From Lama glama (lineage: Eukaryota), in assembly GCA_028534125.1 (NCBI GenBank), contig CM052816.1, positions 65,906,001 to 65,970,000 of the forward strand: a DNA stretch of 64,000 bases, written 5' to 3'. Positions 22,521-53,157 of this stretch are shown here, piece by piece (the stretch's first letter is position 1; every line of letters starts with the position of its first letter). Under the pieces are notes generated by a model, which saw only the letters and a list, made by a program, of their open reading frames with translations, was not told the origin of the DNA and ran no database searches. The position numbers were made by a program, and so were the translations under genes.

Positions 22521-22712
22521 TTTTGATGTGGACAATGGCACATCTTCGGGACGGAGTCCCTTGGATCCCATGACCAGCCCAGGATCTGGGCTAGTTCTCC
22601 AAGCAAACTTTGTCCACAGTCAACGTCGGGAGTCCTTCCTGTATCGATCTGACAGCGATTATGACCTCTCACCAAAGTCTATGTCCCGGAACTCCTCCAT
22701 TGCCAGTGACAT
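22521..22712 (+). CDS. PDE4D: PDE4D internal coding exon (192 nt, phase 2-2), N-terminal part of UCR1 including the PKA site RRESF
   Basis: Acceptor tccttttccttcatttacag|, donor at|gtaagt. Translates (x)[63 protein letters not shown](I). The motifs VDNGT, PMTSPGS, QANFVH, PKSMS and IASDI match PDE4D rather than PDE4A/B/C as I recall them. PKA Ser codon at 22633-22635. Confidence 0.97.
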
Positions 22713-25124
22713 GTAAGTGTAAGGGTGAGCAAAGAAAAGAGGGTGCTCTTAGAGAAAATCAAGTAAGTATATCTCTAGAGATGATAAAACCACTGATATT
22801 TGTGCATTCCAATGATGCATAATAGAGATTAAATATCTCCAATTTAAAAAGAAGGGTGACTAAAATTATACAGGCTGAAGATAAATGGTAGATTGAATTT
22901 GAGTACACTGTCACTCTTGATAAGAAGCATTTATTTTCCCTAAGAATACATTGCCTGGGAAAGTGGGAATTAAATTTTTAATGGAGACATTTACACTTAA
23001 AACATTAACTTGTATCTATGTAGGACCTGAGTTTTAGCTACTCAACCTCGTGAATATTTTCTAATATTTTGAAAAGCTTTAAACTCAGTTGGAGAATCCC
23101 TGTGATATTGGCATCATTAGCACTTTGATTATGTCTCAGTTAATGTACCGTGCAGATGTTAGCGCTGGTTTGCCAGACCATTTGAGAGATCTTTGTGGAG
23201 GTTTGCGTAAATTAAACCATTTTTGGAATATTAATCACTGGAGGCAAGCACAGAACACATTAGACAAACTCGAATATCATTTGAGACATGGCAAAGCTTG
23301 GAAAATAATTAGAACTGATAAGCAAGTTCACAGATCGTATACCATCACTAGCTTATTTTCTCAGCACATTCCATTCTTGTGTTTACTGTGGTGTTCATTA
23401 GTTTCCTAGTTTCTGGTGGTTTCTATATAGGACCTCTTATGCAATGCCTGGGTTGTCATTTGTGGTAACTCTGCCTCTCTGTAGACTTAGTCACTCCTGC
23501 CCTAGACATTTGTCCAATAATATCACCATCTTCTCATGACACCAACTCGAAGACTCAGGACAGGTTGCTGTACATCTGCTAGGAACTGTATGGGGCTCCT
23601 GCCAGTCCAGTGTTACTCCGGATACTCTAACAGATCATCGAAGTATCCCAGTGAGTCTCCATGGGGCTCTAGAAACGGAGTTGTGCTTTACTCGTGTTCC
23701 TAACCTGTAGTTCTTGGCTGACATTTATTAATGGTTATAAAATGATAATACTCTCTTCTCCGTAGGAATGAGCAACTAAAGTACAATCATTTTGATGCAA
23801 ATGCTGAATGATTAAATCCCATTGTGTAGCTGCCCATGTTTGAACATGGCAGGAGATATAAGAAAATTCTAAGACAGGGTTCTTGATCTCAAATAACATA
23901 GTCTTTTGAAATTAAGTCTCAGATCAAATAATTAGTGGAAAAGACAGTATGTAAGTCCTAATTTGCATCCTTGTGGGCTATAGGTAAAAGCATCTCATCA
24001 CCTACCCCTAATTATGCACAGATCTACGCCATCTTTCTAAAACTATCCAGTCTACTCTCTTTTTATCTGTTTTTTTTTTTTTGAGATGGGGGCAATGAAA
24101 CTTCTTCCATAATTTTCTCTCTCCACGTCCTCCCACCTGCACCCCAAGATCTACATCTACTCTCTGTATTTCCTTACATATTATGTTGCTTTAGCATTCT
24201 GAAATCTATCTTCAATTTATATTGACCTCTGAAAATCCATTAATTCAAAGACTATTTATCAGTCACCCCTAAAGAGGAAGACATGGTGCCAGTTATTAGA
24301 GGAAAGACGAGGTGCATTTCCTCTCCTGGCGGTCACCATTGTTGTGTTCTTCCCTCCTGCTCACAGACCTCTTCTCACCAGCTCCTCTGATCACCCCTTA
24401 ACATATTTCCCCAAAGTATAGCCCCTGACCCTCCGGGGTTCGCTTTAGAAAACTTTTTTGTATGGGTTCAACCATCAGCTTTCATCAGAGGACTTCCTGC
24501 TCAGTGTCTCTGGCCCTGCAGTGTCAGTTGAGCTCCCGATCTATAAACTGATTTGCCTTCTGAAAGTTTAGACTTTCTTGTTCAGCTGTTCCTTCACACT
24601 CTCTAGTTAGTACATAGTCATCATTAGTTCATTGCACTGATGGTTTCCACTCTTCTTCACTCCAAAACAACTTCCTTTTCCCATTGGCTCTATTTCTGAG
24701 TTATCTTTATTCCATTTTCTTAGGTTTGAAATATAAGAGTTTAATTTATTCATTCACACATAATGAAAATACCTAATGAGCAACTATGGTATATTCAAAG
24801 CTCCCAATCTATACAGGGAAGGGGTGGGGCAGGGGAGAGCTGACACTTTAGACCCTTTTAATAAAATGTGGTGAGCACTATCCTTGGGGCATTTACAAAA
24901 CCATGAAAGAAAAGGAGAGGAGAAGGAGAGTTTGCCAGACAGGGAGCAATATTTGGATAATGTGAGGTAAGTAAAAATCACAGCTCAATTAAGGAATGAC
25001 AGTCTGGTTGGTGTGGGTAGGGAAGAAGATTGGAACACAGTCTACAGGACCTGAGAGCCACAGAGGATTCTAGCTGGGATCACATGATCACATACTTCTG
25101 TTTGAGGTGGGGGTGCTGCAGGAA

Positions 25125-25264
25125 TTTTTGTTGTTGCTGTTATTTATTTGGGAGGAAGGGGTGGTAATTAGATTTATTTATTTTTAGAGGAGGTACTGGG
25201 GATTGAACCCAGGACCTCACGCATGCTAAGCATGTGCTCTAGCACTTGAACTATATCCTCCACC
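25125..25264 (-). mobile_element. Camelid tRNA-derived SINE (vic-1 type)
   Basis: gaggtactggggattgaacccaggacctcacgcatgctaagcatgtgctct matches the other copies. TSD is unclear and boundaries are approximate. Confidence 0.85.
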
Positions 25265-25455
25265 GACACTCTTGTTTTTGTTGCTTCTGATTACTCTATT
25301 GTTGAATGATTGGAAAGAGTGAAGTGATTATAGGAAAATGGATTGTGTTGAAATTCACAGAAACAAAGCAGGCTAAATAGGGTGGAGGCCCAGTCAAGGG
25401 AGTGGTGGTGGGATGATGAGGTTGGTCCCAGATAGTAGAGGCAAGAGGCTTACAG

Positions 25456-25457
<2 letters not shown>

Positions 25458-25515
<58 letters not shown>
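25458..25515. repeat. (GT)29 microsatellite
   Basis: Perfect 58-nt GT run. Confidence 0.97.
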
Positions 25516-25516
<1 letters not shown>

Positions 25517-28500
25517 GGAGGACAGCCAGCAGGCAAGGAGAATCAGAGAATGCTGAAGTTTTGACCCCAAACAAGTAAATGAACAGTGATATTGATGTGA
25601 GGAACACAGGAGAGAGAGTGGACAACATAATGACATGATAAATTTGGCTGTTACATAATGAGGCTAGAATTCCGGGAGAAACAAGACAACAGTTAAAGGA
25701 CGAGGACAGAGAACAGAAACAACAGTGAGGAGAAATTTGAAGAGCCAGTTGCCTTCTATAATTAATAGGTTTGGGATGACCACTGGGAGAAGCATCTTAG
25801 TGGGGTAAATTATTAGAAGAATTGGTGAAGGAGTGAACTGAAAGTGGAGCTATCAGCAAGTGCAGGCATCTCTTTTAAAGGTTAGTAAGTTAAAGAGGAA
25901 AAAGAACTAAAGCTGCTTGAGGCAGAAGTGGGTTCAAGGGAAATTTAAAAAATTTAGGACACCTAAGCTGAGGGAAGCAGGGGTTATGTTGGAGCTGTAG
26001 CTGCTGACAACACTATGATCATGAGTTCAAGTAAAGCGACTAACCTTGGAAAAGTGGTAGGGACAAGTACTGCATTCTTTAGAACAATGAAAAAACAAAT
26101 GAAAAGGAGAAATATAAATTTGGAGATGGACGGGTGAAATGTTTCGAGAACTGGTGGCTAATGGTCTCTACTTTTTCATGCAAGCAGAAAGCTTAGCCAT
26201 CAAAAACTAAAGGAGAGAGGGTAGGGCAGCTTGAGAACTAGGGGGAAGCTTAAGAGCCAGACTGCAGATCACGAAAAGGACAGAACAGGGATGAGCAGAA
26301 GAGCAAAATGCTGAAAAGCCCTGTAGATAATAATAAATAATGCTGAATGGATGGATGGATGGATGACCAGGCTGAAAGTCATCTCCCTCAACTTCATCAG
26401 AGGTGAAACAACTTAGCTTGAGATAGAGACCAGGCACAAACTCTTGGTGAGCTAGTGGACCCGGTTTTACAATGGTTATGTATTTTGTTTTCTAAAATTA
26501 GAGCAAACTGGTTTTTAGATACCAGTGTGTACCCATGCATTTTATGAAAAGTCTATAATATTTCACATTTGAATAGTGCTTTTCTTTCCAAAGTAAGCTT
26601 AGTGCAAGGATGGCCTCGTTTTCCCCCGCACCTAGTCACGGGTTTCTTTATCTGATCAGACTCCTGTAAGAGTGACAAATCTAATTAGACTGTGATGCAA
26701 CTCTATATTTTGCTGAGAAATAATGTCTTGATATGTTCAGCTTTCCCATTTCTCCTGGGTATTTATGTTGGAGCAGTAAGGTTTCCCTTTGACACTAAGT
26801 GGCTCCTGGAAAGCATTCTTTCTACCAGGGAGATGAAATTTCTCTGAGAAACAAGATGAATAGAATAAGTAACTACCATTTCCATCTTTAATCTGGTAAT
26901 ACACATACCACTACACATAAAGGATCTCCTCTTCTCTCATTTGACGTCACATCTGGCCATCTGTAAAGCTCCATTTTCTAACCTACTTCATGATAATGCT
27001 GGGAAGTTTGTTCAGTGTCTGTAATTCAACTGTACTCTTTACAGGGAATGATATTATCATGTATTTTAATTGCTTTTGATGATTTTAGACTTAACTGGTC
27101 TAGTTAAGCTTTTCTACTGAGAAGAGCCCTTAGAAATTTCAAATACAAACAGTACCAATGAAGGTTTGGAAAACTCCTCTTTAAATTCAAATACAATTGT
27201 TTAATTTGTTGATACAGTGAAAAGGAAAATAATTACCTTGCATAAGACAGGATATCATTACCTCATCGTCTATAAATAGATACTAATTAAATAGCTGAGA
27301 CACAAGAAGAAAGTAAGAGTGATAATGGTAGTGATCAGTATTATAGCATATATTGGGTATGTGTGTCAGCCTTCATTTTTCTAAGTATTCACACCTGCCA
27401 TCTCATTTGATACTTTCCACAGCCCTATGGATAGAATTATTGCCCCATTTTACAGATGAGAGAGCCAAGGTCCTGAGAGCTTTACCTTTTTAAAAACACA
27501 ACAAACATTTCGATCATTTCTAAGGGAACATTATTTTGATAATGCCATTATAAACAAAGTGCTGTGTAGCAAAACTGATGAGAAACAGAAGTACCTGTGG
27601 ACCAAATTCATTTGACCAAATGAATTATTTGGCACTATGGAAACTTTTTTTTCAGTTCTTAAGGGAAACAAAGATACAAGCTCAAATTGGTCAGAGAAGT
27701 AGTAAAGAAAATATGCAACTGACTCTTGGAAAATATATACAAGTCTATAGACCAGGCTGAACTCAGCTTCTAAAAAATTAGCTTACATGAGGCAGAAGAG
27801 AGGTCCCTGGCAGCCTCTGCTCGGGGGACTGTCACATAGTTTGTTAAGTGTATTTCCAGTAGCAACTTAATTCTTAAGAATAATAAGAAATACGAAAACT
27901 GTTAGTATTAGCATGAGTACACTAAAGAAATAAATACATGAAGAGTAAAGTTGAACTATCATTAAGAGCAAAAAGTCTGTTATAACAGTAGAAATAACTA
28001 GATACAGAAGGTGACCCAAGTGCTTCATGAAGAAACAGGAAGAAAATCACAGAATCAATGAGTAATTACATAAAACAGATGAAGGTTTTTTTTTCCCCTC
28101 TAAATTCTTCAAATGCATTGAAAATGATTTTAATTTCTGGATAACAGTTTCTTCTGTTGTTACCCTTTATCCAATAACAGAATGTTGTTTGTTTTTACAA
28201 GTGTGCAGATATGAGCCACTGGGAAAATTATCAGTGACAAGACCAATCGTGTTTTAGTCATAAAACTGTGAATTTATTGAATACAAGTGCCTGTCAAACC
28301 ATATCAGTTAAAAAGACTTTTCAGTCCATCTGGATAACGGGCCTCCAGTCCCCGTCGTCTGCTGAATAAGCACTAATGCACCGAATCCCAGGATGATCCA
28401 AGCAGCTCTTTATCACACGTACAGCAGACCAGTACATATGGGGGAGGGCGTGGAAGTGTGGAAGGGGCAGCGAAGAGGAGGTGAGTGGACAGAATGCACC

Positions 28501-31500
28501 ATGAAAAGCTGAGGCACACTTGGCCATCTAGCTAGTTGGTCCTCCCCATCATGCAGAAGTATAGGGCGTCATTGATCAAGACTCTGGAGTGCCCCATGTG
28601 GGCATCCTATCCCACCCGACACACCCCCACCCCGCCCATCTCAGATTTGTACGATTTCTTTAGTAGTTAGCAAGTCCCTCCCCACTTTTAAGCCTTTGTG
28701 AGTCTTCAGTCATAGCCATTCCTGGCTTCCTCATGTGACTACTGAGTAGAAGATGGTGTTGCCTCTAGTCTGAAAAAGGAGGAGTGACCACCTTTACATC
28801 TATTCATCAGTTCTATTACAGGTTACATTATTCTTCCTTAGTCTTACTAGGGTATCTCTAAAAAGGATGACAATAAAAAGATATGCTGCATTATGAAACT
28901 TAGTTCTCACTAGATGGACATGAAAAGTTTGTAGCCACGCCTAACAAGATTTTTAGATCTCATTAGCACTAAAGAGCATCTGCCTCTTTTCTAATCTCAA
29001 TTTGCCATTTGAAAGTCCTCTAACATCATCTAAACACAGAAAGATGCTGTGATCAAATAATTCCTTCCCTAATTCCTGAATTTTCCCGACCAAGAGGGTG
29101 TCTTCACCCCTCACTTCACCACTCACTCACTGGTGTAAGAGTAATGAAACTAGGGCCAGGCTTTCCAAAGCATGTGCTGAGGTGGCCTGGGCCACCACGG
29201 GGAACTCACACGGGGGAGCCAGGGTATTTTTAATTTTCAAGGGAAACAGAAACATCTGGCAGTCAGCTGGAGGATTAACAGCTTGAAATAGTTCCCAGTT
29301 TCAACTTTGGATCATTACTTTCCATGACATCATAACTTTGCACAACAGTTGCTGTGATAAGAAGCAAGTACTGCACAGAAGTCCACGTGGACCTGGAAGT
29401 GAGGGAGGGAGAGTCCAAGCTCGCCACCAGTGAGAAGTGGTGTAGGTCTCAGCAGGTGCTTAATGTGGAGATGAAACCTCATTGAATAGTTTGGACTAAA
29501 TTCTTAGTAATTGCAACTGTTAGTTATTTCTTTTGGCCAGTGGGGTGCTGTAAAAACAATTACTGAGATGCTAAGAGTGTCATGAATTGAGAAAGTTTGA
29601 GCACCTCTGGATTAAGGTGTTTATTCATGTTCTTAGGATTGGAGCTAAATCAGATCTCTGTGTGAAGAGAAATTTTGTTAAGAGAGAGAAAAAAATCAGA
29701 TTCAAAGCCATGAACATCTTGATGAGCTCTAGAATTGAGAATTTATCCTATTCTTAGTTCTGTTAGGACCCTCACACAGGCAAAATACTTTATTATTATC
29801 AAAAGCAATATTATTTTGGTAACGAGCCAGATAAATCAGGCTTTTTCTTCCATTCCATGGGGATTGTCAAGTTACTGTTATTATGCTGTTGTAGTATTGA
29901 TGCAGGCACCAAACTCACAATAGCCATTAAATCCCAAGACGGCTCTTGACAGAATACTCTAAGGTCATGGGCTACTAAAATACCGTTTTGCTACCTTTTT
30001 TCCTTTTACTTTTTTAAAAATTCCACTTCTTTGTCCAGTCACTGGGGTCATTTTATTTCTAGCTCAAAAAAAAAAACAAAAGCAGTTCCATAAATGATAA
30101 AATAATACTTATAAATTAAGTAAACATACTTACTCAATTTTTGAATTGAGAAATTAAATATAGCAGCTGAATACACATTTATATTCCTAATTCCATACTT
30201 AAAATCATAAAAGGGAAGTTCTAATATTCTCACATGTTAAATTGCCATGTTTGTTAACACCTCAGGGTAAAAATAACCAATTTTAATGCGTTACTCAAGC
30301 GTCTGTTTGGGTGTTATTGCACGGTGCTCCAATAGTTAAAATAACAAGGGAATTACGTTATGTGTTCTAATATCTCTTGATTATCACTGCCAAAGTAAAA
30401 GATAGATCTTTGGGGTCTTAGGGGACATGGAGAGATGAATATTAGTTATGAAAAGTTTCTAGAGTAGAGGGGAAAAGAAATGGAGATTCACCAAACATAT
30501 TGTCATTCATTATTTTCTTGATAAGACTACTGCAATTCTATTACATCTTTAGGAGAATCTGCCCTAATATTTAGCACACAATTTTCTTTTCTAAATTTCC
30601 TTCATGCCCTGTATGCTCCTCAGTGTTTGGACTCTCATTTTAATTGTGAAAAGAGAAAAATACAGAAAAATAGTCACCTGAGTGTTCCTCAACTCTCATA
30701 CCTAAGAGAAAAGGGCAGGGTAAAGATCAACTATTTAAACCTGTAAATGACTGACTGTGCAGTTACACTTTAACCTCAGACTTAATGCTTTACAGAGGGT
30801 AACATCTTTTTTAAAAATGTGGGGAGAATGGTAGCTTAATAATTAAAGTGATTACCCCACAATTTTAAGATATTAGATCCCCGCTAGAGAGAAAACTTGA
30901 TCAAGGAAAAGCTGGCTTATTTTTCAGTGTATACAAAGAATATAATCTCTAAGAGCAAAGAATGAGTAAAATTAAGTACCCAACTAAAATTAGGAAAATT
31001 TGAAAACCATCTTCAATGAAAAAGGCTAGCACAGGGACCTGCAGAGTGCTCTCAGGACAATGTGGTCCTCAGTGAATGAGCTGAGTTGAAAATTATGGGC
31101 GCTTCCTGCCTCTTGACTTGTAAGGGACAGATGGCCATTACACAAGAGGGTCTGGTTATGTCAATTATAGATACTGTGCCTGAGGGCTCTCACTTGCTTG
31201 TTTATCCTAGCACTCTTTCCTCTATGTATTAAAGAAAACTAAAATCAAAACTGTGTTCTCTTTCATTATGCAATGAAAATTTTCTGAACTTCAAACCTTG
31301 CTAGTGGGTGGTAGGAATGGGGAGGATGGTGATAGGTCAGGGGAAAGAAGAAAGTTGATTTCAAATGGAGGTAGCTTTTTTCTTCTACCACATTCTAAAT
31401 AAGTGTGTTAATTGGCTGCATTGTTGAATGAGCATGTCATGCTTTTACTCACTTAGCAAATATTGACAGTTACCTCCTCCATGTCTAGGTGTTGTTTGAA

Positions 31501-33699
31501 GACACCATAGACCCATGAAAACAAGACAAAAATTTTGTTTGGATCATGCATTCCTGTCATTTTTTTTAAACGTCTAGATACTTACCCAGATAGAAAGGGA
31601 GACTTACCCAGTCAATACTGAGATTCCTGTATGAATCCCTGTTTCCACTTACACATCAACCACTTTAAATATTTGTGAGTCTTAGATCCTTAGTGAGGTG
31701 TTCTCAGTGTCTTCTCCCCAGTTTTATGAGCCACATAAGGAAAAATGATCACACGACTGGAGCACTTGGTGATGTGCTTCTTGAGATAGGATCTACTAGG
31801 GATATTAATACATCATCCTTCACTAAATCCCTGTAAGATGAATCATTGAAAGATTTGCTGTTACAAATATGAAGAAAGGGAGCCTTCAACCAGACCCGTG
31901 GCTTTTCTTCAGAAAAAGTCTAGTCAGGAATATTGAACACTGAGCTTTGCTATGAGATTCCTGGCACTTTGTGGCATGGTTGAGGTGAGAATTACTGAAG
32001 AAATATCCCCAGTTATTCCGTCTGCCCATGGCAGAGGTTCTCGGGCTTTGTGTCAACTTCCCACTGTCTTGAGACTTCAGCTTTTTCTTAACCTTGGATG
32101 ATGAAAACGTTGTTGTCATTGACCACCATATAGTTATGTCTAGACATATGTAAGGCATTAATTCCTACAACCTCCCAATGAAAGCAGACAAATTAAAAGC
32201 AGAAATAGAAAGGACAGCTGTTTGCATCTCTGCAAATGAGGAGGCTGCACTGTGCCAGGAAATCATTGAAGCAGTTCAGTGCACGACACTGTGTGCTAGT
32301 AAACATTATGCGTGGTCCCAAGACCAAGACCTTTTGGCTCATTATTTCCCCTCCAGGGAGAACAGGGCTGCATGCAGATCTCATGTGTCCTTGTCTCCAC
32401 ATCCATCCCTCCTTTGGAACTTAGAGAACATTAGACTGAATTTGTTCTATCCACCACAGTCAGTTTTGTTTGGTTGGTTATTTTTTGTTCCTTTGTTTGA
32501 ATTTTTTTTTTTTTGCCAGAAAAATCAGAAAACAAGCATTCTGGTTTATATGTTATCTAAAGGTCCCTATGATGATTTTTTTTAAGTGCAATAAAATAAA
32601 ACTTTCATCCAGTCACTATTATTTACAATTATGAGTACAGTTTTACAGAAGCTAAAAAAGAAGACAGTTGGTAAAAAGAACTCTTTTACATCAAATCATG
32701 AGATTAATTCCATGTGTTAACAACACATTTTTATTTTATGTCTTTTCATGTGCATTCTTTATCTTCAGTACATTGAGTTTCCATTCACTTATCCCACCTA
32801 CTATAGAGATTAGGTAAAACTTCCTAACATGTTACACTATTTTTTGGTGTTTTGTTTGTTTGTTTGTTTGTTTGCTTTACATTTATTTAAAGGTAACCCA
32901 TCTTGTACTGTTTATCCAGGAAGGGATAAATGATGTTTCCTAGACAGGTGGCTTGTCTATAACCCAGCTCTCCAAACACAGGAGCACTTAGAAAATAGTG
33001 AAAGTATGTCTCAAAGGTTCGCAGACAGACCTCGCAGTCCTCCGTTCCAGTTCAGGATATTCACCAGGTCCACCCTGTTTCATCCTTTGTGGCTCTCGGT
33101 TTTTGTAGACTCATTGGGGAGTAATGTATATAGATAGGAATATATTCTTAGAATTGCCTGGCATCTGTATAATCTTTATAGTTGACATGAGAATCCTCCA
33201 GTGAAATTTAATACTTGATTCTCAAAACAATCATATAAGGAAGCTAGGGAAAATATCATTAGCTGAGTTTTAGAAATTACAAAATTCTGCTCAAAAGATC
33301 TGTCTCATGTGCGCTCAACAACACATGTGCACGCACGCCATGAATCAGAATCCAGGCATCTTGACCCTGAATGTAGTGATTTCAATGAACAGCTGCTGCT
33401 AGACCATATCTTTGGCATCTGCTGGCAGGTACAGTAACGTCTAGATGAGAATATAATAAATAAGTAAAGCAATTAAGCTAAAATCTTAACTTCCCTTTAA
33501 GGTGAAGAACCTTGATAGGTAGGCATCTGGGCAGATTTTTTCTACTCAGGGTCTTTGCCAAACGGACAAGATTTTTTTTATGTTAATATATCAATGTTCT
33601 TTTGCCCCCAGGTTTAGAGTAGATACTTTTTATTCATTTGTATAAAACATTGTCTTCCCTTGAAAGACTTACAAGTGAAGTTTTGCATAGATTGCTCAA

Positions 33700-33915
33700 G
33701 AGCTACACTGGTCAAGATGGTAGCTACTAGCCACAGGTGACCTTCTCTGAATTTAAATTAATTAAAGTTAAATAGATGTAAAATTCAGTTTCTCAGTTGC
33801 ACTAGACACATACCCAGTGCCAGGAAGCCACTGTGGCCAGTGGATACTGTATTGGGCAGCACAAAGAGAGAACATTTCCATCATTGCAGAGATTTCTGTT
33901 GGACCATATTGTTCT
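33700..33915. mobile_element. hAT-Charlie MITE (MER3/MER33-like)
   Basis: atggtagctactagccaca...aaaattcagtttctcagttgcactag...gtggccagtggatactgtattgggcagcac...gaacatttccatcattgcaga. Confidence 0.75.
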
Positions 33916-34280
33916 GGAGTCTAGAATATGTACTTCTGTGGGGCTTCAGAATCATCTGAGTCCATCTGTGCATGCAGAAAAGCAGCCTAGTGCAGTCGAA
34001 ACAGCCTTTAAAGCCTGGGTTTAAATCCACCTTCACTGCCCATTTCTATGCCTTGGAATTTCATGACTCATTAAGACTTCAGAAACCATCTGGGGGAATG
34101 GACGCAGGGTTACTCACTGTTTACTTTGCCAGATAAAGGACTTCACTTATTTAACAAAGAAATTCCCATCAATATACACAGTCATTTTATTTTTAAAGGC
34201 ATTTCACTTCATTTTTTTAAAAGGGGAGGGGCATATTCTCAGAATAAGGGAGAATTTTCCAAAGGAATGTGATTAGCTTT

Positions 34281-34431
34281 AAAAAAAAATCTTTTATTGT
34301 TTATATTTTTTAGGGGGGAGTAATTAGATTTTTTCTTTTTAAATTACTATTATTTTTTTCAATGAAGGTACTGGCGATTAGGACCTCATGCATGTCAAGC
34401 ATGTGCTCTACCACTGAGCTACACCCCCCCC
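34281..34431 (-). mobile_element. Camelid tRNA-derived SINE (vic-1 type)
   Basis: Same family core with a deletion in the B box. TSD tg(a/g)ttagcttt at 34270-34280 and 34432-34442. Confidence 0.87.
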
Positions 34432-39060: not shown

Positions 39061-39356
39061 ACCAGGGGGTAGAGGGTGGGAAGGGATAGACTGGGATTTC
39101 AAAATTGTAGAATAGATAAACAAGATTACACTGGGAAATATACACAAAATGTTATGATATACACAGGGAAATATACACAAAATGTTATGATAAATCACAG
39201 AGAAAAAAATGTGACAATGAGTGTGTATATGTCCATGAATGACTGAAAAATTGTGCTGAACACTGGAATTTGACACAACATTGTAAAATGATTATAAATC
39301 AATAAAAAATGTTAAAAAAAATAAAGGCAAAATAAAAATTTTATTCTACAAAAAAA
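39061..39356 (+). mobile_element. Young 5'-truncated L1 3' end
   Basis: L1 3' UTR, AATAAA and A-tail. Perfect 16-bp TSD aaagaaaaaaatggaa at 39045-39060 and 39357-39372. Nearly identical to 58072-58259 over the shared part. Confidence 0.92.
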
Positions 39357-40620: not shown

Positions 40621-40657
40621 ACATGGAGATGACCTGATTGTGACCCCGTTTGCACAG
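40621..40657 (+). CDS. PDE4D: PDE4D internal coding exon (37 nt), UCR1
   Basis: Acceptor tttggtttgtttttcag|, donor cag|gtaagc. Translates (I)HGDDLIVTPFAQ in phase with the previous exon (at|a = Ile). Confidence 0.97.
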
Positions 40658-41249
40658 GTAAGCACAGCTGGGTCACTGGACAGCTTTCTCACTCCTTTGA
40701 AAATTTCATTGTGGGGATTAGTTCTGGTTCTTAATGTCATTCTAAATCAAACATAAGTACAAGTACAAATTCTGTGGTTCATTCAGTAATTTAAAAGCAG
40801 TGCTAGAGAATTTGATCTTGGCCATATTGGTCTGTTTCCTGTAAACCCATAGACCCAAAGGGTGTCTTTGCTTCAAATTACAAATTATCTAAGTGACTTG
40901 CTTAAACGGGACCATATTTCCTTGACTGACATAAGCACTTGAAAAGGAAAGCTATATCACAGATTAAATTACATTTAGATAGTTAGGTACATGATCAGTG
41001 CTTGAAATTCAGTATTCCAATTCAACCTGATGCTTTATTTACTCTTTTTTTTTTAACATGCTATTTGTCTAAAGATTTAACTGAGTGATGTATTTATACT
41101 TATTTGTTCCTTTTAGGTATACAAATCCTGAAAATACTTAACCACATGACAGAATTGCTAGAAGGTGAAAAAACCTTCTAAAGAAAGGTTATCTAAAGAA
41201 ATCTGGAATATATATGAAGTGGTTGATAACCAGATATTTTTTGTAGAGG

Positions 41250-41410
41250 CCAGTGCTTCTCAACCCTAGCTACATATTAGAATCACCTAGAAAGTTTTTA
41301 TCCCATGCTGCACCTCTAATCAATTGAAAGGAAAAATCTGGGGTTTGGACCCAGGTACCTGTAATTTTTAAAGGCCCCAGTATTTTCTCAAGGGTAGTTG
41401 AGAGCCTCTA
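41250..41410. mobile_element. hAT-Charlie MITE (MER5-like)
   Basis: cagtgcttctcaaccctagctacatattagaatcaccta ... aattttaaaggcccca ... ttgagagcctct. Similar relics lie near 2450-2635 and 9340-9470. Confidence 0.65.
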
Positions 41411-44400
41411 GTATCAACAGACTAGGGATGGAATGGGACAAAACTGATTTAACCTGGGGCGTGAACCAAGTGTAAAGTCAACACTGTTAATAAGAAATGT
41501 GAAATACTGGAATATAAGTGATTCAGAAGGTTATAAAATTCATAATCAAGGCTATGTCAGAACTGCCTCTACTGCCTTGAGCCACTCACTTAATTTCTCT
41601 AAGACTTCTTTTTTCAGTTGGGAAAATTGGGGGCTCAGCTGGATAAAGATAGGCAGGCCCCCATCAAAGCCCATCACCAACTCTGGCTCAGTGAACGGAC
41701 TTGGACAGGCCTGGTTTCTCCCTCTGCCCAATGACAGTTCCAAGACTACCCACCTCTGAGGTTGTCACGAGACTGAAATAATACCAAGCTTCTAAAATGC
41801 CCAGCACAATTTCTAGAAAATAAAACACTTAATGAATTTTAAGCATTGTTATCAGGAAAGGTCCTTTCAACCTCCAAAATGTCATGATAGGCATCAGTTT
41901 TAAAAGCTGCATAATGGCAGTATTCGGATAGCAGGGTTAGGTATGATTCTTCCACTTTTTCAAGTTTTCTGAAATTTTTTAATTGCTATACCTTAGACCA
42001 AAAATTTAATGAGTCCGTGAATAACAAAGTGTAACAGTGATCACTTTCATTAATAGGTAATTAAAAATAGATTGCCATCACCATCCCCTTCAGAAGCTTA
42101 ATGTCTCACTTAAGGTCTTGCTAGAGATCGTGAATTCTTTCTGAAAGCTGTATTTCTTGTTCAAAAAAATTAGTCTTTTATGTCTTAATCATATTTTGTG
42201 ATAGCAAAATCATATAAAGCTAAGGACTTTTAATTGGTTACTATTGAGAATCCATAACTTTATACCTCAGAGCTGAGAGCTGAGTAGATACGATAAATCA
42301 TGCAAAATAATATATAAATCACCACCACCAAATGTAGAAACAGTCATTCCAACTTGAGTTTATTTAGGTAGCTATTCTTCCTTCTGACTAAAATCTCTAG
42401 GTATTGTTGTAAGAAAAATATATGTGAATATATGGTAAATATGAAAAATTAATCTGTGTATACATTATCTTTTTATTTCAAATAGTATTTATTAATCTCC
42501 AACTAATTGATCAATAAATTTGACTTGGACCTTGCTATTAGCTCCCTGAAATTCTAAGGCTATCTAGTCTTTTTATGTAATTAGACACTTTCTGTAGTAT
42601 CCTTATAATCTCTAAAAATCTAATAGAATTTCAGGATACTGAGAAACATATGTGTAAAATATCGTTTAGTCTATGTTAGTAAGCTGTTTAATTAAATAAG
42701 TGTGTACTTAATAACCCTGAAATTGGAACCTTGAATAAAAACCAACTCTATGTAATTTGTAGGCACGACGTATGATGCCAGAAAATAATCCTCGAATCTA
42801 TTTAGGAAAGTTTGCTTATGATTAGCTTAATGACTCATAACACCTTGTAGAAGGTGGTTATTGCCCCAGAGGCTGCAGATTTTTTTTAGTGGCTTCATCA
42901 CAGTTTTCATAAGTAGCGTTTTACTAGGGTATATGATCCGGAAAGCTCTACTAGAATTAAAAAAAAAAAAGCCTGTTAAACCCTGAACAATTTTGCCACT
43001 AATAGAGCATCTTTGGGGACGCAGGTATAAAAAAAAAATGTCCAGTAAGGGGCTGTTTGTCTATGGCGTTCTCTTAAGTCCAATTGGGTACCACTAGATT
43101 ATTCTGTTGACCTGACCAATAACTCCTCAAATGTTTAATACAGGCTAGAACATTCACCATTTAATGCTAAATATAATGATGCTTAAACTAAAAGACATTA
43201 GACATTAGATGTTTATGTCCCTTCAAGTGATACCAACATTATGTGGTCGAATATACCATAATTGCTTTCACCAGTAAGACAGAAGACAGTTGACGTCAGT
43301 GAAAAACGTTCATATAGCCCAAAGAATTCCCCCCTTTCCCAGAATGCTTTGGGGTTTGGAATTTCACACTAGATTCTTCTGGTGAAAAAGCCATAGCACT
43401 TTCAAACTAAAATCTTTTGCATAAAAAGTTTAGAAATGAAATGTAAGCAAAAGGAAGTAAAAGAAAATTCCCTATAATTCCAAACCCCAAAATAGGTACT
43501 ATTGACATTTTACTTTAGACCCCTTTAGATTTATTTTTCTGTGCATATTTTCCTTCCCATAATTCTTAAAAATGAGCCTTGCACCGTCTAAAGTGGTCAG
43601 AGGTCTTTTCCCAAGCCCGTCTCAGATTCTGCCCCTTTTTGAGGTCTCATTTCTTTATACCTGCATTCATCTCCAAAACATGAAAGGATCCCTCCCTGTT
43701 GTTTCCCAGTCATGGTTTCCTGTGAAGCTAAGAGAATACAATCTTAAGTTATAAGAGAATTCAGAAAGACATGCAAGATTATATTCCACTTTGATGGACA
43801 GGGCTGAAACCTAAAATAGTGTGCATAGATGTCATCTTCAGCAAAGATCCTACATGTTCTATTCCCAAGTCTAAAACACTGTCAAGATGAGACATTCTTG
43901 ACACTTTTCCACTTCCAGTTTCTTATTTTTCCCCCTATGAGCTCCGAATCTTTTTGATCTCCAGAAAAAATCACAGCTCTAAATATTTTATTTGTTTCCA
44001 TTTTGAAATCTCTTCCTGTGTTTGTGTTGAAATCTTTGGGTTTGGATATTTCCTCAGTCTGTGTGAGAAAATTGAGAAGGGATCTGAATGCCATGCCATT
44101 CCAACGTGATGCCACTTGGCAACTGGCCTTTTCCTCCTGAAGGTGTAGTCACACTTTGGCCAGAGTTCTTGAGGGGACCAAGGAACACCGAGGAGGCACC
44201 ACACTGATGAAGTTCAGGAAACCCTGCTTTGTAGTCAGTTGCCTCTGGCCCTGCCTGTCCCATTATTTATGATACGACTACCTTGTAAAAGTCTAAGTCC
44301 ACTAGAATTCTCACCCGGAGGTGTGCAATGTTAAAAGAAGTGGACTCTTTAATTAAGAAAAAGACAGAAAGTATTTAAATACTATCTTGGATCCCTGGAG

Positions 44401-44793
44401 AGACCTTCATGTCATTCAGACTAAGGAGATACCCCTAATTTTAAAATGTAGGATGGGGACAACTGAGTCATTTCACCCTTACTTTTACTGAGATACAGAA
44501 CCTGGGATCATTTTAGGGAAAATGTACTGGTTGTTAACCCTGTGGAACATTACGATTCTGCGGTAATTGGACATTATCAATTTTTTTTAATGCCCCTGTG
44601 TGTCTCTTCCTTGTGTCACCCAGAAGAAGCAGTCTTTGGCCTCATCACTGAATCTAACAGGCTCTCCCTGCTGGGCTAGGAAAGAAGGAAATCATCACAT
44701 TTCGGTGGCTTCTGCCTGTTAGTTTTTTTTGTTTTTTTTTCAATCCTTTATAAAGTAAATTTCAATAGCATGTTCTATGAATCTGAGTATTTT

Positions 44794-44872
44794 TTAGGTT
44801 GAATTATATGAAATCATCAATATTAAATCTTTGTTGATATATAAAAGAGCAATTTCATATGGTTTTATCCAA
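44794..44872. mobile_element. Tc1/mariner MITE (MADE2-like, about 80 bp palindrome)
   Basis: Terminal inverted repeats ttaggttgaattatatgaaat ... atttcatatggttttatccaa. Confidence 0.7.
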
Positions 44873-45043
44873 AACATAATGTGGAGAGGTTTTCTATCAA
44901 AATGACCTCTCTATCTTGTAAATAATCATAATTTGGCTCCAGGTTTTTGCTGGAGGCAAAACCAAGGCAAGGAATTTTTTCTCCCTCCCCATTTCCCCCA
45001 CTCCACCCATCCCAAGGCCTGTGGCAACTCACAGTCTGTGTCT

Positions 45044-45062
45044 TAGTGCCATCTAGTGGTGG
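45044..45062 (-). promoter_or_regulatory. Candidate CTCF site
   Basis: The minus strand reads ccaCCACTAGATGGCACTA, a full match to the CCASYAGRKGGCRS core. Motif evidence only. Confidence 0.55.
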
Positions 45063-47884
45063 AAAGTGTATCTGGCGTGAAAAGCCTCAAGACTATATCT
45101 TGTTATTTTTTAAGCAGGAGTTTTTAACAAGAATGTTATAACTGGCTCTTTTTCTTAAAAAAAAAAAAATCTCCTCCTTACATTTTTTCAAGAATTTATT
45201 ATTGTGTAAGTGTACATTTCTTTTAGGGTAGTATGTTCAGATGTTTAACTTTTTAATGAAGCTCACATTTTCCTGCTATTTTCAGTGAATCTTATTGGTT
45301 ACTAAATGTTTAGAAATACCTAGGATAATCTAAGATTACTATGTGTAAATAACGTTTAATCCCTCTCATGGGCCAGTACATCTCTGGGCAAAAGTTTTCT
45401 ATTGCACTGTCATCTTTCTTTCCTAAAGTGTATTATTTTTCATTGTTTCCAATGTATTTTAATCTTGACTGATTATACTTTTGCTTGGAGGGGCAGAAGA
45501 AAGAGAAATGACCTTAATTTTCTAACCATTGAACTGTGTGGGAGAAAACCTTAGGGACCTTTTTGGTTAGCAAGCATTAAAGAACAAAGATTATAGGAGC
45601 GTGAGAGCTCTGACTACAGCTCTTAAAGGGTTGAATGTGAGGTGGGAGGGAGGTGAGACTTGCTCTATAATAAAAGCAAAGAATAATTGAACGCTAACTC
45701 AGGGGCTTATGTAAAACTATTTCTAGTTCCCCACCCCCTCCCCCAGCCTGCACTCTTTGTGTCTCATTCTTTGTGTCCTGCAATGCAGGTAAGAGCAGAA
45801 AAGACTGACACAGTGCATTCATGGTGTAAACGCCCAGGATCACTCAAACTCGGCCCAGGGCAACACCCCCTTGTGACATCTGGTTGGAACTTTCATTTTT
45901 CCCTTCTGCCCGTATCATGGGTGTCATAGTGCAGAAGGTAATAGTTAATACTTAATATAACATTTACAAAATATTATTCATCCTAGCATCATGACAGTAG
46001 TGTAACACTTGTGCACAGAAGGAATGGTACATTCACAAGGCTATTTACTACAGCAGTGTTTGTAAAAGCAAAACGTAAAAGATCATCTAAAAAGTCAAAT
46101 GGATAATGGCAACAGGACTGAGTGGAGGAGGAGCTGAAAGGGAAATTTCTTCTTCCAGTTTTCATTTGGAAATATTTCATCCACATAAGAGACTATCTCT
46201 AGCAACTTTCCAAAATATAAAGAATAATGCTAACATCAACAATTTAAGAAACAGAATAGGACCAATATTTTAATGCCCCTAAGTGTCCCTCCCCAATGTT
46301 GTCTACCTGCCTCCTCTCAGAAATAACAATAATTTTGATTTTGTATTTGTTATTGAGGGAGAGACCATTTACTTTTGTTTAAATTCTATACCATATGACG
46401 ATCTTGATTAGGTAAAAATAAATGTAAAGTTAAAAAATTAAATTTAAATTAAAACCCAAAATGAAAGACTCTAATTTAATATCTTTATTATAACAGACTC
46501 AAAAACCTTTGTAGAGAATAACGGGGGTGTGTGTTTATCTTTCATGAAGTCATGCTGTCTTTCAGATGAGTGTAGAACATGAATTACCCCCGGCACTATT
46601 TCTATGTGCCCAGCTGTCAGATGTAGTGCACTTACTCTAATTTATTAGAATAAAGTTCTCAGAATTCTGAGGTCAAAATTTTGCCTAGAACAAGGGTTGA
46701 TTAGGGGGTGCAACAATCTTATTTAAAATGCTTTAGTAGCGTATTTGACATTCACTTCTTAAAGCATAAATTCCGCCTGCATGATTTCATGACAGTGGAT
46801 CGTTTGTCAGATTTCTTTCTGCATCATTCAAGATTTCATGCCCAGTGAGAGACATCGTGGTTTGATGTCAGCAGTTGGCTATTTGAATACTCCGTCATGG
46901 GCAGCGTGACCTTTCCGCACTGTGAGCTGTTTATATGTGATAATGAGCCAGGTTTTTCCAGTGACTTAGCTAATCATGGTTGGCATTTTAGGAAACACCG
47001 TTAACTCCTTCAGGGGAGAATGCTGTAGGTCACTGTCCCTGGCATACTCAGTACCCCAGTGACTTACCAGAATAAATGCCAATTTCAAAAATGTCAAAGA
47101 CATTTTAGCCTTAGAATAAAATTTAGACCGACTTCAGTCTAGGTCGATGCCCAGTAAAAAAATCTGGAAACAGTTCTGGAACCCTTGAAGCAGTTATAAC
47201 TCTGACACCTCCTCCCATATTCTCAAAGAGAAGTAAATTCCTTATGCACGTGCCACATCATTAGTCCTGCAGGACATCGCTGTAATGGGCTAATATTCAC
47301 CGAGTGCCATCGGTTTGCCAGGCACTCTTCTTGGCACATGATCTGTCATTTCCTCTCATCTTCACAAGCCTGTCAGGTAGATGTCAGTTCCCTGGTTTAC
47401 AGGTGAGAAACTAAGGTTCGGAGAGATGACGGCACTTTTCTGAGTTCACGTTCACACATTGAATATGTAACAGAGCCAGGCGGTCTGGGTTGTTATGTGG
47501 TACCTAACAAAGCACCTGAGATCTATGCTTGAGGTCAACATTCTGGTGGTCACCCAGATCACTCATGATCTCACCTAACGTAGGTCCCCCTCCTACTGGG
47601 GGGAAACTTGCCCATTTTAAGAGAAAGTGAGTGGGGTAGAAGGAGATAGAGCTCTTGTAATTTCTCTTCCCCAGTCTTCCGATTCTTTGCCAATTTATAG
47701 TTTCACTAGAATTAGAAAAAGGAAGGGCTATAGAGGTAGAGGGACTCATGGTCCCGCCCTGTGTCTGTGGAAATGTTGTGTCTTTGTGCTCATTTATTCA
47801 ACAAAAATTTTTTGAATGTTTTCTAGGGGCCAGGCTCTGTGCACATTACAGGGTGGTCTCATTTTATTTGTGACCTTCTAATTA

Positions 47885-48100
47885 TTTTTTTAACTTTTAA
47901 TTTTGAAATAATTTTGGATTTACAGAAAACTTGCTAACGCAGTACAGAGAGTTCCCATATGCTCTTCATCCACTTTCTCCTAATGCTAGTATCTTACAGA
48001 ATCATAGTATGATGATCAAAACCAGATAATTAATGGTGCAATACTATTAACTGAACTTCAAACTAAGCATTATATAAATTTCATCAGTTTTTCCACTAGT
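47885..48100 (-). mobile_element. Ancient L1 (L1MC/MD-like) 3' end
   Basis: ttttaattttgaaataattttggatttacagaaaacttgc...agtacagagagttcccatat...tcctaatgctagtatcttac. Confidence 0.65.
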
Positions 48101-48685
48101 TTTTTTTAACTTTGTAAGTGACCTTATAATTCTTGATTCAGATAAACTTAACAAAGAAAAGGATCTGTTTAGTAGCTAGAATAGCCATGTGGCAAAAGTG
48201 AAAAAACAATTAAAATTTACTTAGCTTACTGACTTCAAGATTATGACATTCTTGGTGAATTTTTGAAGAGAAATTGAGGGTAACTTTGTTTTCATATTGC
48301 CCCCAAAGTAAGACTTTCTTACTATTTTATATTACACTATTTACATTTGCATAAAATGCAGCAGCACTCATTGTATATTGCCTGGGACATTTAGTGGCTG
48401 AGGAACCCAGGAATACTGTGGAAACTGCTGCTACTGTCACTTTGTTCATAGACGTTGAGGAGGAATGTCTGGAAAATCCTTAAATCTGGCCTCTCTGGAT
48501 TTCAAATGGATACGTGTGAACTGTGCTAGGTGCTAGAAGATTCTTCAGTAGTATATGAAACCAAGTTGCAAGCAATATCAACTTTTCACTTAACAAACCA
48601 TTTTTTACAATCACCAAACCATTTCAAATTCCACTAGAGAGGGCCCTATTTCAAGAAGTTTAAAGAATTCTTTTCTTTGTTGTAG

Positions 48686-48759
48686 GTCTTGGCCAGCCTG
48701 CGAACCGTACGAAACAACTTTGCTGCATTGACTAATTTGCAAGACCGCGCACCTAGCAA
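48686..48759 (+). CDS. PDE4D: PDE4D internal coding exon (74 nt), end of UCR1 / start of linker region 1
   Basis: Acceptor ttcttttctttgttgtag|, donor caa|gtaagt. Translates VLASLRTVRNNFAALTNLQDRAPS(K). Not present in the ORF track. Confidence 0.97.
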
Positions 48760-49234
48760 GTAAGTTATTTTTTTTACCCCCTCCTTCTGGCTGACCTTTC
48801 ATACAGTGTTTCCTGAATTTGATTGAACTCAAGGCAATATATTAGATTTCTCTGAATCGTCGCCATGTTCTCTAACCATTTACACTAAATCATATGATGT
48901 CCTGTTAATTTTCTATAAATACTTTGTAGTGATGCTTCTAATATCAGAAGTGAAACAGGATGACAAATAAATATGGTGATTCCATCTGTCAGAAATCACC
49001 TGGTGTAATCAGTCCTCTGCCCAGTTATTTACACGCAGGGTAACTTTATAGTTTTGGCTTACTTCATAAAGCAACCATGGGCAAATAATGTCTTCACGCC
49101 ATAAAGCCGACCCAAAGTCAGCCTCTTAATTCTAAGGCAACCATTACTTGGAGAAGCGTCATATCATAGCAAAGGTCTCCAGTTCTCCTGCTGTTACTGA
49201 CTCAGATCAGCAGCATCATGGAATAATTAACAAA

Positions 49235-49303
49235 ATTGGAATTTATGGAATAAATTGGGATTTATGGAATAACAGAGATTTATGATTGGAATTTATGGAA
49301 TAA
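49235..49303. repeat. Short imperfect tandem repeat, 3 copies of attgg(a/g)atttatggaataa
   Basis: Copies at 49235-49253, 49254-49272 and 49285-49303, with a partial copy in between. Confidence 0.85.
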
Positions 49304-51899
49304 TGGGAAGCATTTGAAAGAGAGAAAGCTGAGATGAAAAATAATTATCACTTGGGCATTCTAATAAAGGTGGAAAATGCAAAAAAAATTAATTTTCCAA
49401 GATTAAATGGAAGACTGATTCGTCATTCAGATGCAATTATTGTGACAATTTATTATGAACAATAAAATATTATCATTAAAATACCAACTCCAAAGAATTT
49501 TCCCGAAGAAAAGAAAACACATTTCTTTAAATCTATATTAAGAGGACAGTGAATAGAAATTTACTTGGAATTATAACTTATCTAAGCATATAAAATTTTG
49601 TTGTAGCTACAACTTCTTAAAGAACACAAAATCTAAACTTTCCATCGCATGATAATAGAATTGAACTCCCAAATTCACGTTTTCTGTGATTAAAATAAGA
49701 TCTCTGGTCATTATGCACACACTTCCCCCCGTGATAGAACAAGGTTTGTTGTTTTTTTTTTTTTTAATCACTACAAATGCCACAATGCAGATAATCCGAA
49801 TGGAACCCAGAAGCTTCCGTTGATGGTCTTGTTTTTCAGGTAGTGAAATTTTGCAGTCCTTCCTCAGCCTAAGCATCTCTCACTTTCTTCTTCCCCTCCT
49901 CATCCACCGGGTTAACTGCAATTCATTCTTTAGGTCACAGCTTAAATATAATTTCTTTTAGAGCATTGTCTCTAAGACCCAACATGCGCCTACACCCACA
50001 GGTTGGTGGCCCAACCTGGGTGGTATCCCTTTACGTCACCACCTGATTGCATCCTGTGCTTAACCCCTGTTTTCTCTCGGCGTTCCAGTTGCCTGTTTGC
50101 TTATCTGGATGCTCCTTAAGAATGACGGTTCCCAGAAAGCAGGGATCGTGTCTGGTTTACATTTGTATTCTCAGTGCCTAGCATGATATGACCCCTGCGC
50201 AGAGTAATCACTGTACGCGTGCATCCTGGCTGGAAGGGTGACGTGGTGATGCAGCAAGTGAAACTGAGGCTGTGCTTTGAACTGTTTCTTCATTACCAAG
50301 CATGTCTTCTCTGTTCAGTGGCCTCTTTGGGGCATTTGGCATTTGTAGTCCAAGGTGCACTCACCTCCTATGGAAAGTCTCAGCCCTGCAGGAGAAATGA
50401 AATGACTGATGTCCCTTCAAAACTTTTTTAGCCTCAATTTTTATCCAGGAAATTGAGATTTTTGTCTTTGAAAAGTAAACAAGAAACTTTATAACTCATT
50501 GACTAGTTCTTTTTACACTTTTTTCAGCTTTGGTCACTTGGGTGCCAGCATCTATGTCTGCAGCAGGCAGACACTAGTTCAGCAGGTGGGAAGGCATCAG
50601 ACTGGCCTTTCTGTCTCCAGAGAGACCATCTGAGGCTCAGTCTACGTGAGACAGATATTTTTAACTGACTTACTGGGACAAAACAAATTAAAATGGAAAA
50701 GAGCAACTAGAGGAGGATAGAAAATCATAGTTTGTGCCTGAACTTGACTTCCTCTATTATGCCCTGGAGACATCTAACCAGATTCTGCCAAGGTAGGTTG
50801 GTACCTCCATTACTGATTCAAATCCAGTCAACCTCTTTGAGTATCAGAACAGTAGGACTCAATCTACAGACAAACTATTCTGTTCTGTGATAGTAAAATG
50901 GATATAACTGGTGCATCATGTGATGACCCGAAGAAACCAGAATTGCCCTTCAGGCTACTCCCAGTGCCGCTAGAACACTCCCAAGCTCACCCCTGGGCTT
51001 CGTGGAAGGCACGTGCTATCTTGCACAACCCGCCCTTTCTCTTCGCCGCAAGAGAGGAGTCTAGGAAGGTTGCTTCTGAAGCCCCACATTCCCTGCAGGT
51101 CCTCGCTTGCCCGCGGCTGACATTTATCAACTTGCTGCCGGCTCCTATCCTCTCGAATTTTCTTGCCCTTGAGATTTTCCATTCCAGAAGTGAGTTCTGG
51201 CTCATTCTTCATTAAATGACTTATTGCTGAAGCCGTGGATCAAACGATTGGTATTTTCTGCGTGTCGTTACTTGTTGAAAATATCAAGTTCCCAAGTGCC
51301 AGTTGTAGGATTGATGATAAAAGATTAAGAGGAATGAGTCAATGGTTTGGTCTTCCAAAACTATAGAAACATTTAAAAATAGTTGTTTGATATCTTCCCC
51401 AGACAAAAATCAATGCTTTTTAAATTTTCACAGAGCAAGAACTTAAAAGGAATAATCATTATATCCATGATGTGAATAATAAACTCTCAGCAAGAAGATA
51501 ACTATTAGTCTATAGACCAAAACTACTTCAGGGTAGCAATTTTAAACATTTACCTTTCTTTTTTATGATGCATTAAGTTTCAAAATCCCCCGTTTGATTT
51601 CGTAATAAAAACTGAAATGATCCGGAAGTAAACATTGGTGCGTTTTTAATCAAACACAAAATTTCAACCCCAAACTGGTATCAGTAAATTTAAGAGCAAT
51701 GAGACAGAGCCAGATGCTGATGGGAACCAAGTTGGTTGTAATTTCAAAAGCACTAGAGCACTTCCCCATGCATTTCCCAGCCCTGCTAAGAGAGGCGTCA
51801 TCTCAGGAAGGCAGATCTGACCAGGGCCCTGCAGGAGCCTGCTGTCTGTGTTGGTGTGTGGCTGTTTGTCCAGGCTCCACAAAAGCATCCTGAAAACAA

Positions 51900-52135
51900 G
51901 GCAGCGTAGCTGAGTGCAGGCCCTCGAATCAGATAGCTTTCGTTCAGATCTCAGCTTTCTGACTCTAAGGAAGCGATTTCACTTTCCAAAGCTGTGGTTT
52001 CCTCATTGGTAAAATGGGAGCAGTGAGACTACCTGCATTATGGTCTGTCGTGAGGACTGAATGAGATAGTTCATCTAACTCTTGCTTAGCACAGTGTCTG
52101 ATGTACAGTAAGTGCTTATTAAGTGTTAGCCATGA
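51900..52135 (+). mobile_element. MIR SINE
   Basis: gtttcctcattggtaaaatggg...gtcgtgaggactgaatgagata...gcttagcacagtgtctg...cagtaagtgcttattaagtgttagc. Further MIR relics lie near 5430-5650, 17350-17600, 27330-27480, 35365-35575, 41560-41850, 47310-47490, 56120-56280, 59745-59915 and 63850-64000. Confidence 0.75.
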
Positions 52136-53107
52136 CTACAAATACCAAGCAAACAAACCCAAAAAGTGAAAACAAAAGTTTTTTAGACATCCTTGAATGT
52201 ACATATTTTTTAAAGTTTTTAAAAAAAGATCACCATATTTCAAGAGCTTTAAATTACAAGTAACAACTTTATAAAGTTACATTTCAAAAAATCTTAACGG
52301 AGATTCCATAAATGATATTCTCTTCGACTTAATTTAATAAGCACTGTATACATCGTGCTGGGCTCTGTAGGGAATACAAGTTAGTCACATAGCATTTTTT
52401 CTTGTTTTACCTCAAGGGGTTTATAATCATCTTGTGGAGCTTGGCAAACATCTGCAAAATTAGAGAATATAAAATAGAATTGATATAGGTACCTTTGATT
52501 TATAGTATTTCTAAAGTCTCTGTAGCATCTGTTTGAACACGTCATTAATATACCTCCCTAGCAAATGTATCAGAGATGATTCTCAATATAAGAAAGCAGA
52601 AAGGAAAAAGTTCAAGTAGCTTCTCCATGTGTAATACACTTTACAAGGAGTCACTCACTTTTGATAATGTACAGGAAATCATGAGAACTTATGCCAAAAA
52701 AAAAATAAAAGTTTCTTAACTCTGTATTAGAGAAACCAATTGTAGATTAAATTTTTCAAATTCAGAAAGTCTGTGTTTGCTCTGAAAGCCTGGGCTTAAA
52801 TGGATATGGTCAATCAATAAGAACTTTCTCTTCTATCATGTCCTGTGACATTTACATGAAACTTACTTACCCCAAAATCTATCACCGTGAGGTTTAGCTT
52901 TTTAAAAATTTTTTTGATATTTGTGGTCTGAACTGTATTACAAAGTGTGCCTAGGAGTTTGACTGGCTAGTCTGAAAGTTATCTTCATTTGCATGTTTGA
53001 ACTTAAAAATAATCCTTAAATTAAAATATCATTCTTGAAATGACCAGAGAATCTTCACCCTGACAAGTACCATATATTTACTGCTCTGTATTTTTCTCTT
53101 TTGTCAG

Positions 53108-53157
53108 AAGATCACCCATGTGCAACCAACCATCCATCAACAAAGCCACCATCACAG
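53108..53157 (+). CDS. PDE4D: PDE4D internal coding exon (50 nt), linker region 1
   Basis: Acceptor tttttctcttttgtcag|, donor cag|gtaaga. Translates (K)RSPMCNQPSINKATIT plus one nt, in phase with the previous exon (aa|a = Lys). Confidence 0.96.

Follow-up and report, generated by a model that had tools for sequence, protein, structure and literature searches.

The four-exon circPDE4D block of Lama glama and its once-around reading frame: a very probable by-product of main-frame codons

The PDE4D exon block and its circle

The window, i.e., the whole stretch of 64,000 nucleotides that was analysed, contains on its forward strand four exons of PDE4D which encode UCR1 and the linker before UCR2. 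The 63 residues from the first of them (22521-22712) showed 97-100% identity to PDE4D proteins from sharks to mammals in a similarity search. The exons and the predicted back-splice sites are the following:

22521-22712, + strand: PDE4D circle exon 1, 192 nt; N-terminal part of UCR1 with RRESF; first exon common to the long PDE4D forms; AG/GT ends
40621-40657, + strand: PDE4D circle exon 2, 37 nt; UCR1; AG/GT ends
48686-48759, + strand: PDE4D circle exon 3, 74 nt; carries the VRNNF dimer motif on the C-terminal UCR1 helix (role: PMC4371794, partial text); AG/GT ends
53108-53157, + strand: PDE4D circle exon 4, 50 nt; linker before UCR2; AG/GT ends
22521, + strand: predicted back-splice acceptor of the PDE4D circle, start of the 192-nt exon
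53157, + strand: predicted back-splice donor of the PDE4D circle, end of the 50-nt exon
22620, + strand: likely internal alternative acceptor, with AG at 22618-22619; from the mapping of a minor human circle

Together, the four exons amount to 192+37+74+50 = 353 nt, a length that leaves a remainder of 2 when divided by three; this recount agrees with the arithmetic given in an earlier, sequence-only reading of this DNA. Neither the 22.5 kb upstream nor the 10.8 kb downstream of the block yielded a further annotated-type PDE4D exon, which fits long flanking introns. At three places in the window the match to a gene model of Camelus ferus is 100%, and two of these places lie beyond the usual exons.

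The 353-nt circle is already known in human and mouse. Human circPDE4D, named hsa_circ_0072568 (PMC13039329), comprises exons 2-5, with a Sanger-confirmed junction and an RNase R-resistant Northern band of size 353; it is mainly cytoplasmic in human chondrocytes and depends on QKI in human cells, and its mouse homologue shows 93.2% similarity (PMC7791010, partial text). The human junction primer (PMC13039329) matches the window, with donor 53157 joined to acceptor 22521, at 22 of 23 bases, and the circPDE4D primers of PMC10347372 (partial text) were placed in the third and first exons of the block. The four-exon circle is also present in the ENCODE table of PMC6487579 (hg19 58476420-58511794; row 2411 among the rows listed), with 927 junction reads vs. 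178,216 for circHIPK3, and the hg19 rows give human exon lengths of 192 and 74, equal to those of the window exons. A minor human PDE4D circle in the same table (32 reads) has one end 99 nt inside the 192-nt exon; its acceptor maps to 22620 in the window, and a circle using this site would have 254 nt and lack the ATG at 22570. The sequence-only reading had mentioned a human circPDE4D of unconfirmed exon content, and this pointer proved correct, as the gene is PDE4D and both the junction and the 353-nt length are the same. Since the splice sites are identical to those of the human circle, circle formation is likely in this species too.

Two QKI-type sites were located in the flanks of the block:

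22006-22011, + strand: QKI-type site (ACTAAY core plus a nearby half-site), located 515 nt before the acceptor
55081, + strand: second bipartite QKI-type site, 1.9 kb downstream of the block

QKI-type sites are not enriched, with 10 bipartite sites on the + strand and 12 on the - strand of the whole window. No close inverted repeat pair flanks the block: two inverted matches (86 nt and 57 nt) lie some 16.6 kb before the acceptor, and there are no others. With just these two short and distant matches, flanking inverted repeats are an unlikely cause of circularisation.

The once-around frame and its ATGA

As the exon block leaves a remainder of 2, reading past the junction proceeds in triplets that combine codon positions 2 and 3 with position 1 of the following codon. 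Two features of the first exon acquire a hypothetical second reading on the circle:

22570-22573, + strand: ATGA, main-frame internal Met-Thr codons; on the circle, putative start codon and overlapping stop of the ORF
22523-22573, + strand: shifted frame past the junction, 16 codons plus the TGA; contains ATG 22526 (weak context) and ATG 22535 (strong context)

On the joined circle, the frame opened by ATG 22570 runs for 118 codons (357 nt including the stop). Its first 101 residues are native; one codon then spans the junction, and the shifted frame over 22523-22570 follows up to the stop TGA 22571-22573. Stop and start overlap as ATGA 22570-22573, an arrangement also known from termination-reinitiation. 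Three main-frame ORFs (118, 81, and 30 codons) span the junction, all of them ending at one TGA. The circle holds eight ATGs, and the sole strong context is that of 22535, which lies in the shifted frame 35 nt upstream of ATG 22570 and opens 12 codons before the same TGA; ATG 22570 itself has a weak context (C at -3, A at +4). The 118-codon ORF retains RRESF (PKA motif) and the RNN cluster of UCR1 (dimer motif), and lacks UCR2 and the catalytic dimer surface (motif roles and dimer surface: PMC4371794, partial text). A solved PDE4B structure spans the corresponding region. The once-around ORF of 118 residues from ATG 22570 to the overlapping TGA, its weak start context and its UCR1 content with the PKA switch had all been described in the sequence-only reading and were upheld here, and the two tail peptides that it had proposed for mass spectrometry are predicted tryptic products of the tail.

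A start/stop overlap of this kind is ordinary among coding circles of this size. From the same genome, 20,000 circles of 353 nt were cut from 49 coding sequences (obtained from 60 GPCR and LRR single-exon loci, 11 duplicates or too short sequences being left out), and in 13.1% of them the stop of the ORF from the first ATG overlapped that ATG, as ATGA in 10.2%; the overlap thus occurs in about one in eight coding circles of 353 nt, figures that are approximate because the source consists of single-exon GPCR/LRR genes and not of real exon circles. The corresponding values were 10.2 and 4.7% with 13 low-GC3 genes, and 4.7 and 3.7% over lengths of 200-600; shuffles of the circle's own codons gave the overlap in 16.9% of cases. 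The PDE4D circle also carries what is looked for in a coding circRNA, namely an ATG-started ORF that crosses the junction and acquires a unique tail, and so do 47% of the random 353-nt coding circles, taking junction-crossing ORFs of at least 100 codons.

The main frame itself accounts for the stop. In the first 17 codons of the shifted frame, stops are possible at three residue pairs only: Val-Asp (with GTA), Leu-Asp (with CTA or TTA), and Met-Thr (always), so that an earlier stop could arise only at the two synonymous sites of Val-Asp and Leu-Asp. Because only these three pairs can stop the shifted frame, between 50 and 83% of 20,000 synonymous recodings retain the exact 357-nt ORF (83% with genome, 62% with low-GC3, and 50% with uniform codon usage). 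More generally, on a circle with remainder 2, a main-frame Met produces ATGA whenever the next codon begins with A; conservation of the overlap is thus no evidence of a second gene.

Conservation was assessed on the best 120 of 3,472 and of 3,350 matches (151 proteins in all), a similarity-ranked top set by which conservation is overstated. Among the 116 PDE4D-type proteins within the best 120 matches, 59 of the 63 columns are invariant, Met included, and hence the Met requires no second reason; the Thr that gives the stop is in one of the four variable columns, with Ala in 8/116. Met-Thr was found in 128 of the 146 matching proteins among the best-ranked matches listed, from sharks to mammals, together with Met-Ala (15), Gln-Ala (2), and Met-Val (1), and the Met-Ala entries with a species name come from bony fish (Acanthochromis, Thunnus, Siniperca, Lucifuga, and Periophthalmus); the ORF is therefore probably common to most tetrapods, whatever its cause. 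A DNA scan provided 32 loci, of which three PDE4D-type ones (97%; L008-L010) were counted as orthologous and 29 were excluded as paralogue-like or invertebrate-like (54-88%); all three orthologous loci encode Met-Ala, with neither ATGA nor a shifted-frame stop inside the exon. Met is lacking from that position in all three paralogous exons of this genome. The paralogues share the acceptor phase, as do most of the more divergent loci, and the frame shift at the junction would thus mirror old exon phases. The circle-encoded tail matched 0/151 of the best-ranked proteins, a weak test given that predicted-protein collections rarely include back-spliced contigs.

An alignment of orthologues had been proposed earlier as a check on whether the features of the ORF are kept beyond main-frame constraint; in the proteins and DNA loci compared they do not appear to be, as the stop is forced, the Thr is variable and ATGA is absent from 3/3 DNA loci. 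The accompanying caveat that an ATGA overlap may arise by chance was well founded (13.1% of the random circles, as above), and a special status of ATGA is not supported, the overlap being forced by the main-frame Met-Thr, common in random circles, and absent in Met-Ala orthologues.

Translation evidence and competing explanations

Translation of circRNAs as a class is disputed. No PDE4 row is present in the part of the circPeptide table of PMC9242994 that was available, which has a gene-name column; the riboCIRC supplements are too small for judging the PDE4D circle. In the partial text of PMC6487579, stop positions after circRNA junctions follow chance, junction footprints of circRNAs as a class are described without phasing, and no peptides and no translation are reported for the top 1,000 circles, a set that probably does not include the PDE4D circle in view of its row 2411. 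Hansen's preprint and PMC7544230 (both partial text) give the same warning that apparent circRNA products arise from linear by-products; in the latter, a stop fused to the first AUG inhibited initiation in circZNF609 constructs, the products of which later turned out to derive from linear by-products. In the literature searched, which mostly leaves out subscription journals, no title announces a coding circPDE4D, and supplements or databases beyond it could list one; PMC10323251 was rejected as such a paper, as it concerns Pde4dip, another gene. The circle carries 13 DRACH (m6A-type) motifs against 9.0, 8.1, and 5.2 under three nulls, with null fractions reaching 13 of 0.054, 0.018, and 0.013 in a single after-the-fact test; this excess is modest and counts slightly for a translated circle. 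The fold of the first exon lies within its shuffles (z = -0.27). In mammals, efficient restart after a long ORF usually requires special signals, and viral termination-reinitiation uses a ribosome-retaining signal upstream of the stop.

It is very probable, in our view, that the block is the known 353-nt circPDE4D block, likely circular here too, and that the ATGA frame is an unselected by-product of main-frame codons. The four exons would constitute the long-form-specific PDE4D block, back-spliced to the 353-nt circPDE4D; the circle would remain untranslated or be translated in traces only, and any role would be exerted as RNA (miRNA binding in the literature), or else the circle may be a splicing by-product.

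The opposite reading is cap-independent translation of the circle with ATG 22570 as start. It would yield a UCR1-linker protein of 118 residues, the last 17 of them a new tail, which binds UCR2 of long PDE4 and is perhaps made by ribosomes restarting at ATGA; this reading appears improbable. The ORF is intact, the human circle is real and cytoplasmic (PMC7791010, partial text), Met-Thr is widespread, DRACH motifs are in modest excess and circ-SHPRH, circ-AKT3, and a plant virus circle are reported to have similar start/stop overlaps (PMC11263353, partial text); however, a chance rate of 10-13%, a stop that the main frame imposes and that has been lost in Met-Ala fish, a weak start preceded at 35 nt by a strong ATG in another frame, a low ENCODE abundance, the lack of a PDE4 peptide row (PMC9242994) and of the tail among the 151 best-ranked proteins, and the inhibitory stop-AUG fusion in circZNF609 constructs (PMC7544230, partial text) all argue against it. 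Regarding function, such a fragment would retain RRESF and the RNN dimer cluster, although not UCR2 or the catalytic dimer surface, and the sequence-only reading had proposed a dominant-negative role. This runs against the behaviour of UCR1C, a short UCR1-related peptide by which long PDE4 forms are activated, probably through disruption of the contact between UCR1 and UCR2 (PMC6613170, partial text), and for this reason activation of long PDE4 is the better-founded guess and more likely than blocking, should the fragment be made. A fuller version, in which the endogenous protein binds UCR2 within long PDE4 dimers and activates them as UCR1C does, ribosomes are recycled at ATGA, and the effects of circPDE4D knock-down in cartilage and lung (currently ascribed to miRNA sponging) proceed via cAMP, is very unlikely; if true, it would provide a natural trans-regulator of the long forms of a drug-target family, and another explanation for the circPDE4D phenotypes.

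Two other readings concern further start sites on the circle and the linear mRNA. Trace translation that starts mostly at ATGs other than 22570, namely 22535 (shifted frame), 22681 or 53118 (main frame), yielding short, unstable and functionless peptides, would agree with the eight ATGs, the three junction-crossing main-frame ORFs and the only strong context being at 22535, but circRNA junction footprints as a class are unphased (PMC6487579, partial text), and we regard it as unlikely. On the other hand, ATGA might act on a linear mRNA with a non-coding upstream exon, where a 12-codon uORF from 22535 to ATGA would be followed by restart at Met 22570 and produce a long PDE4D form that lacks any isoform-specific N-terminus. 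Ribosomes are known to reinitiate after short upstream ORFs, the strong ATG 22535 is in frame with the TGA, and three automated mammalian gene models (P0135, P0136, and P0138) start at this Met; nevertheless, these models are predictions, and the strong ATG stems from main-frame Asp-Asn-Gly, present in non-PDE4D loci too, which leaves this the remotest of the readings considered.

As matters stand, the ATGA carries little weight, the circle having been published and the overlap being ordinary; the 118-codon ORF is unreported in the literature searched, and ordinary as well. The lesson is one of caution on conserved ATGA overlaps on circles with length remainder 2.

Comparison with known systems

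The closest system is circPDE4D (hsa_circ_0072568) itself, which shares with the window block the four exons, the 353-nt length, the donor and the acceptor; it is treated as a miRNA sponge (miR-103a-3p, miR-545-3p, and miR-382-5p), and no ORF is mentioned in the partial texts of PMC7791010, PMC13039329, and PMC10347372. At the protein level, catalytic-domain-free linear PDE4D forms, PDE4DN3 and others, are listed in PMC11820465 (partial text, inconsistent on PDE4DN3), so that a circle protein would not be new as a type. Among the best-ranked matches, 59 of the 65 PDE4D-type entries reaching the linker are short models that do not enter UCR2, many of them probably automated fragments. Like the hypothetical circle protein, PDE4DN3-type forms and UCR1C present UCR1 without the catalytic domain; unlike it, they are made from linear capped mRNA or engineered.

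Overlapping start and stop codons have been described, as the sequence-only reading had rightly noted for coding circRNAs, in circ-SHPRH (UGAUGA), circ-AKT3 (UAAUGA), and the rice yellow mottle virus satellite circle (UGAUGA) (PMC11263353, partial text). These three share with the PDE4D circle a once-around ORF with an overlapping stop/start. Protein products have been reported for them (disputed for circRNAs as a class), whereas the product of the PDE4D circle is hypothetical; the PDE4D circle further differs from all three in using an internal Met as its hypothetical start and in the four-base overlap, ATGA.

Shifted frame in the Met-Ala loci

In three PDE4D-type orthologous loci with Met-Ala, rather than Met-Thr, at the putative start, the frame read past the back-splice junction contains no stop across the entire exon, and a circle formed there would therefore yield a different, longer ORF.

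PDE4D-type exons with Met-Ala (locus coordinates)
L008, 500-690
L009, 353-545
L010, 600-790

Linear UCR1-only forms

Several mammalian gene models run past the fourth exon, through intron read-through or alternative last exons, and those extended in this way give linear proteins with UCR1 only; many of these models are probably automated predictions.

Window segments matching the gene-model extensions (63-68%)
53158-53255
53784-53897
54617-54757

Repeats and a miRNA seed-type site

The direct repeat, probably a young interspersed element, has one copy within the first intron of the circle and the other downstream. The inverted match flanks the four exons on both sides, distant from the acceptor.

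Repeats in the window
39158-39337 and 58082-58262, direct repeat, 184 nt, 93% identity
5813-5893 and 55628-55712, inverted match, 86 nt, 79% identity
17254-17404, head-to-tail tandem pair, ~75 nt per copy, 95% identity

TGCTGC occurs once, in the third exon (48721-48726), as the sole 6-mer of the miR-103/107 seed type in the circle; this single site lends thin support to a sponge role.

A probable alternative acceptor and smaller circles

An AG inside the first exon, at 22620, corresponds to the acceptor used by a minor circle in human, ending at hg19 58511695 (32 reads; PMC6487579 table). Splicing to it would drop an in-frame block of 33 codons that contains the Met at 22570, and the exon would begin immediately 5' of the RRESF motif. 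Smaller circles from the same exons, of one exon (22521-22712, 192 nt) or three (22521-48759, 303 nt), are both divisible by three and lack a stop in the main frame; in the human table their counterparts have only 3 and 11 reads, respectively (PMC6487579).
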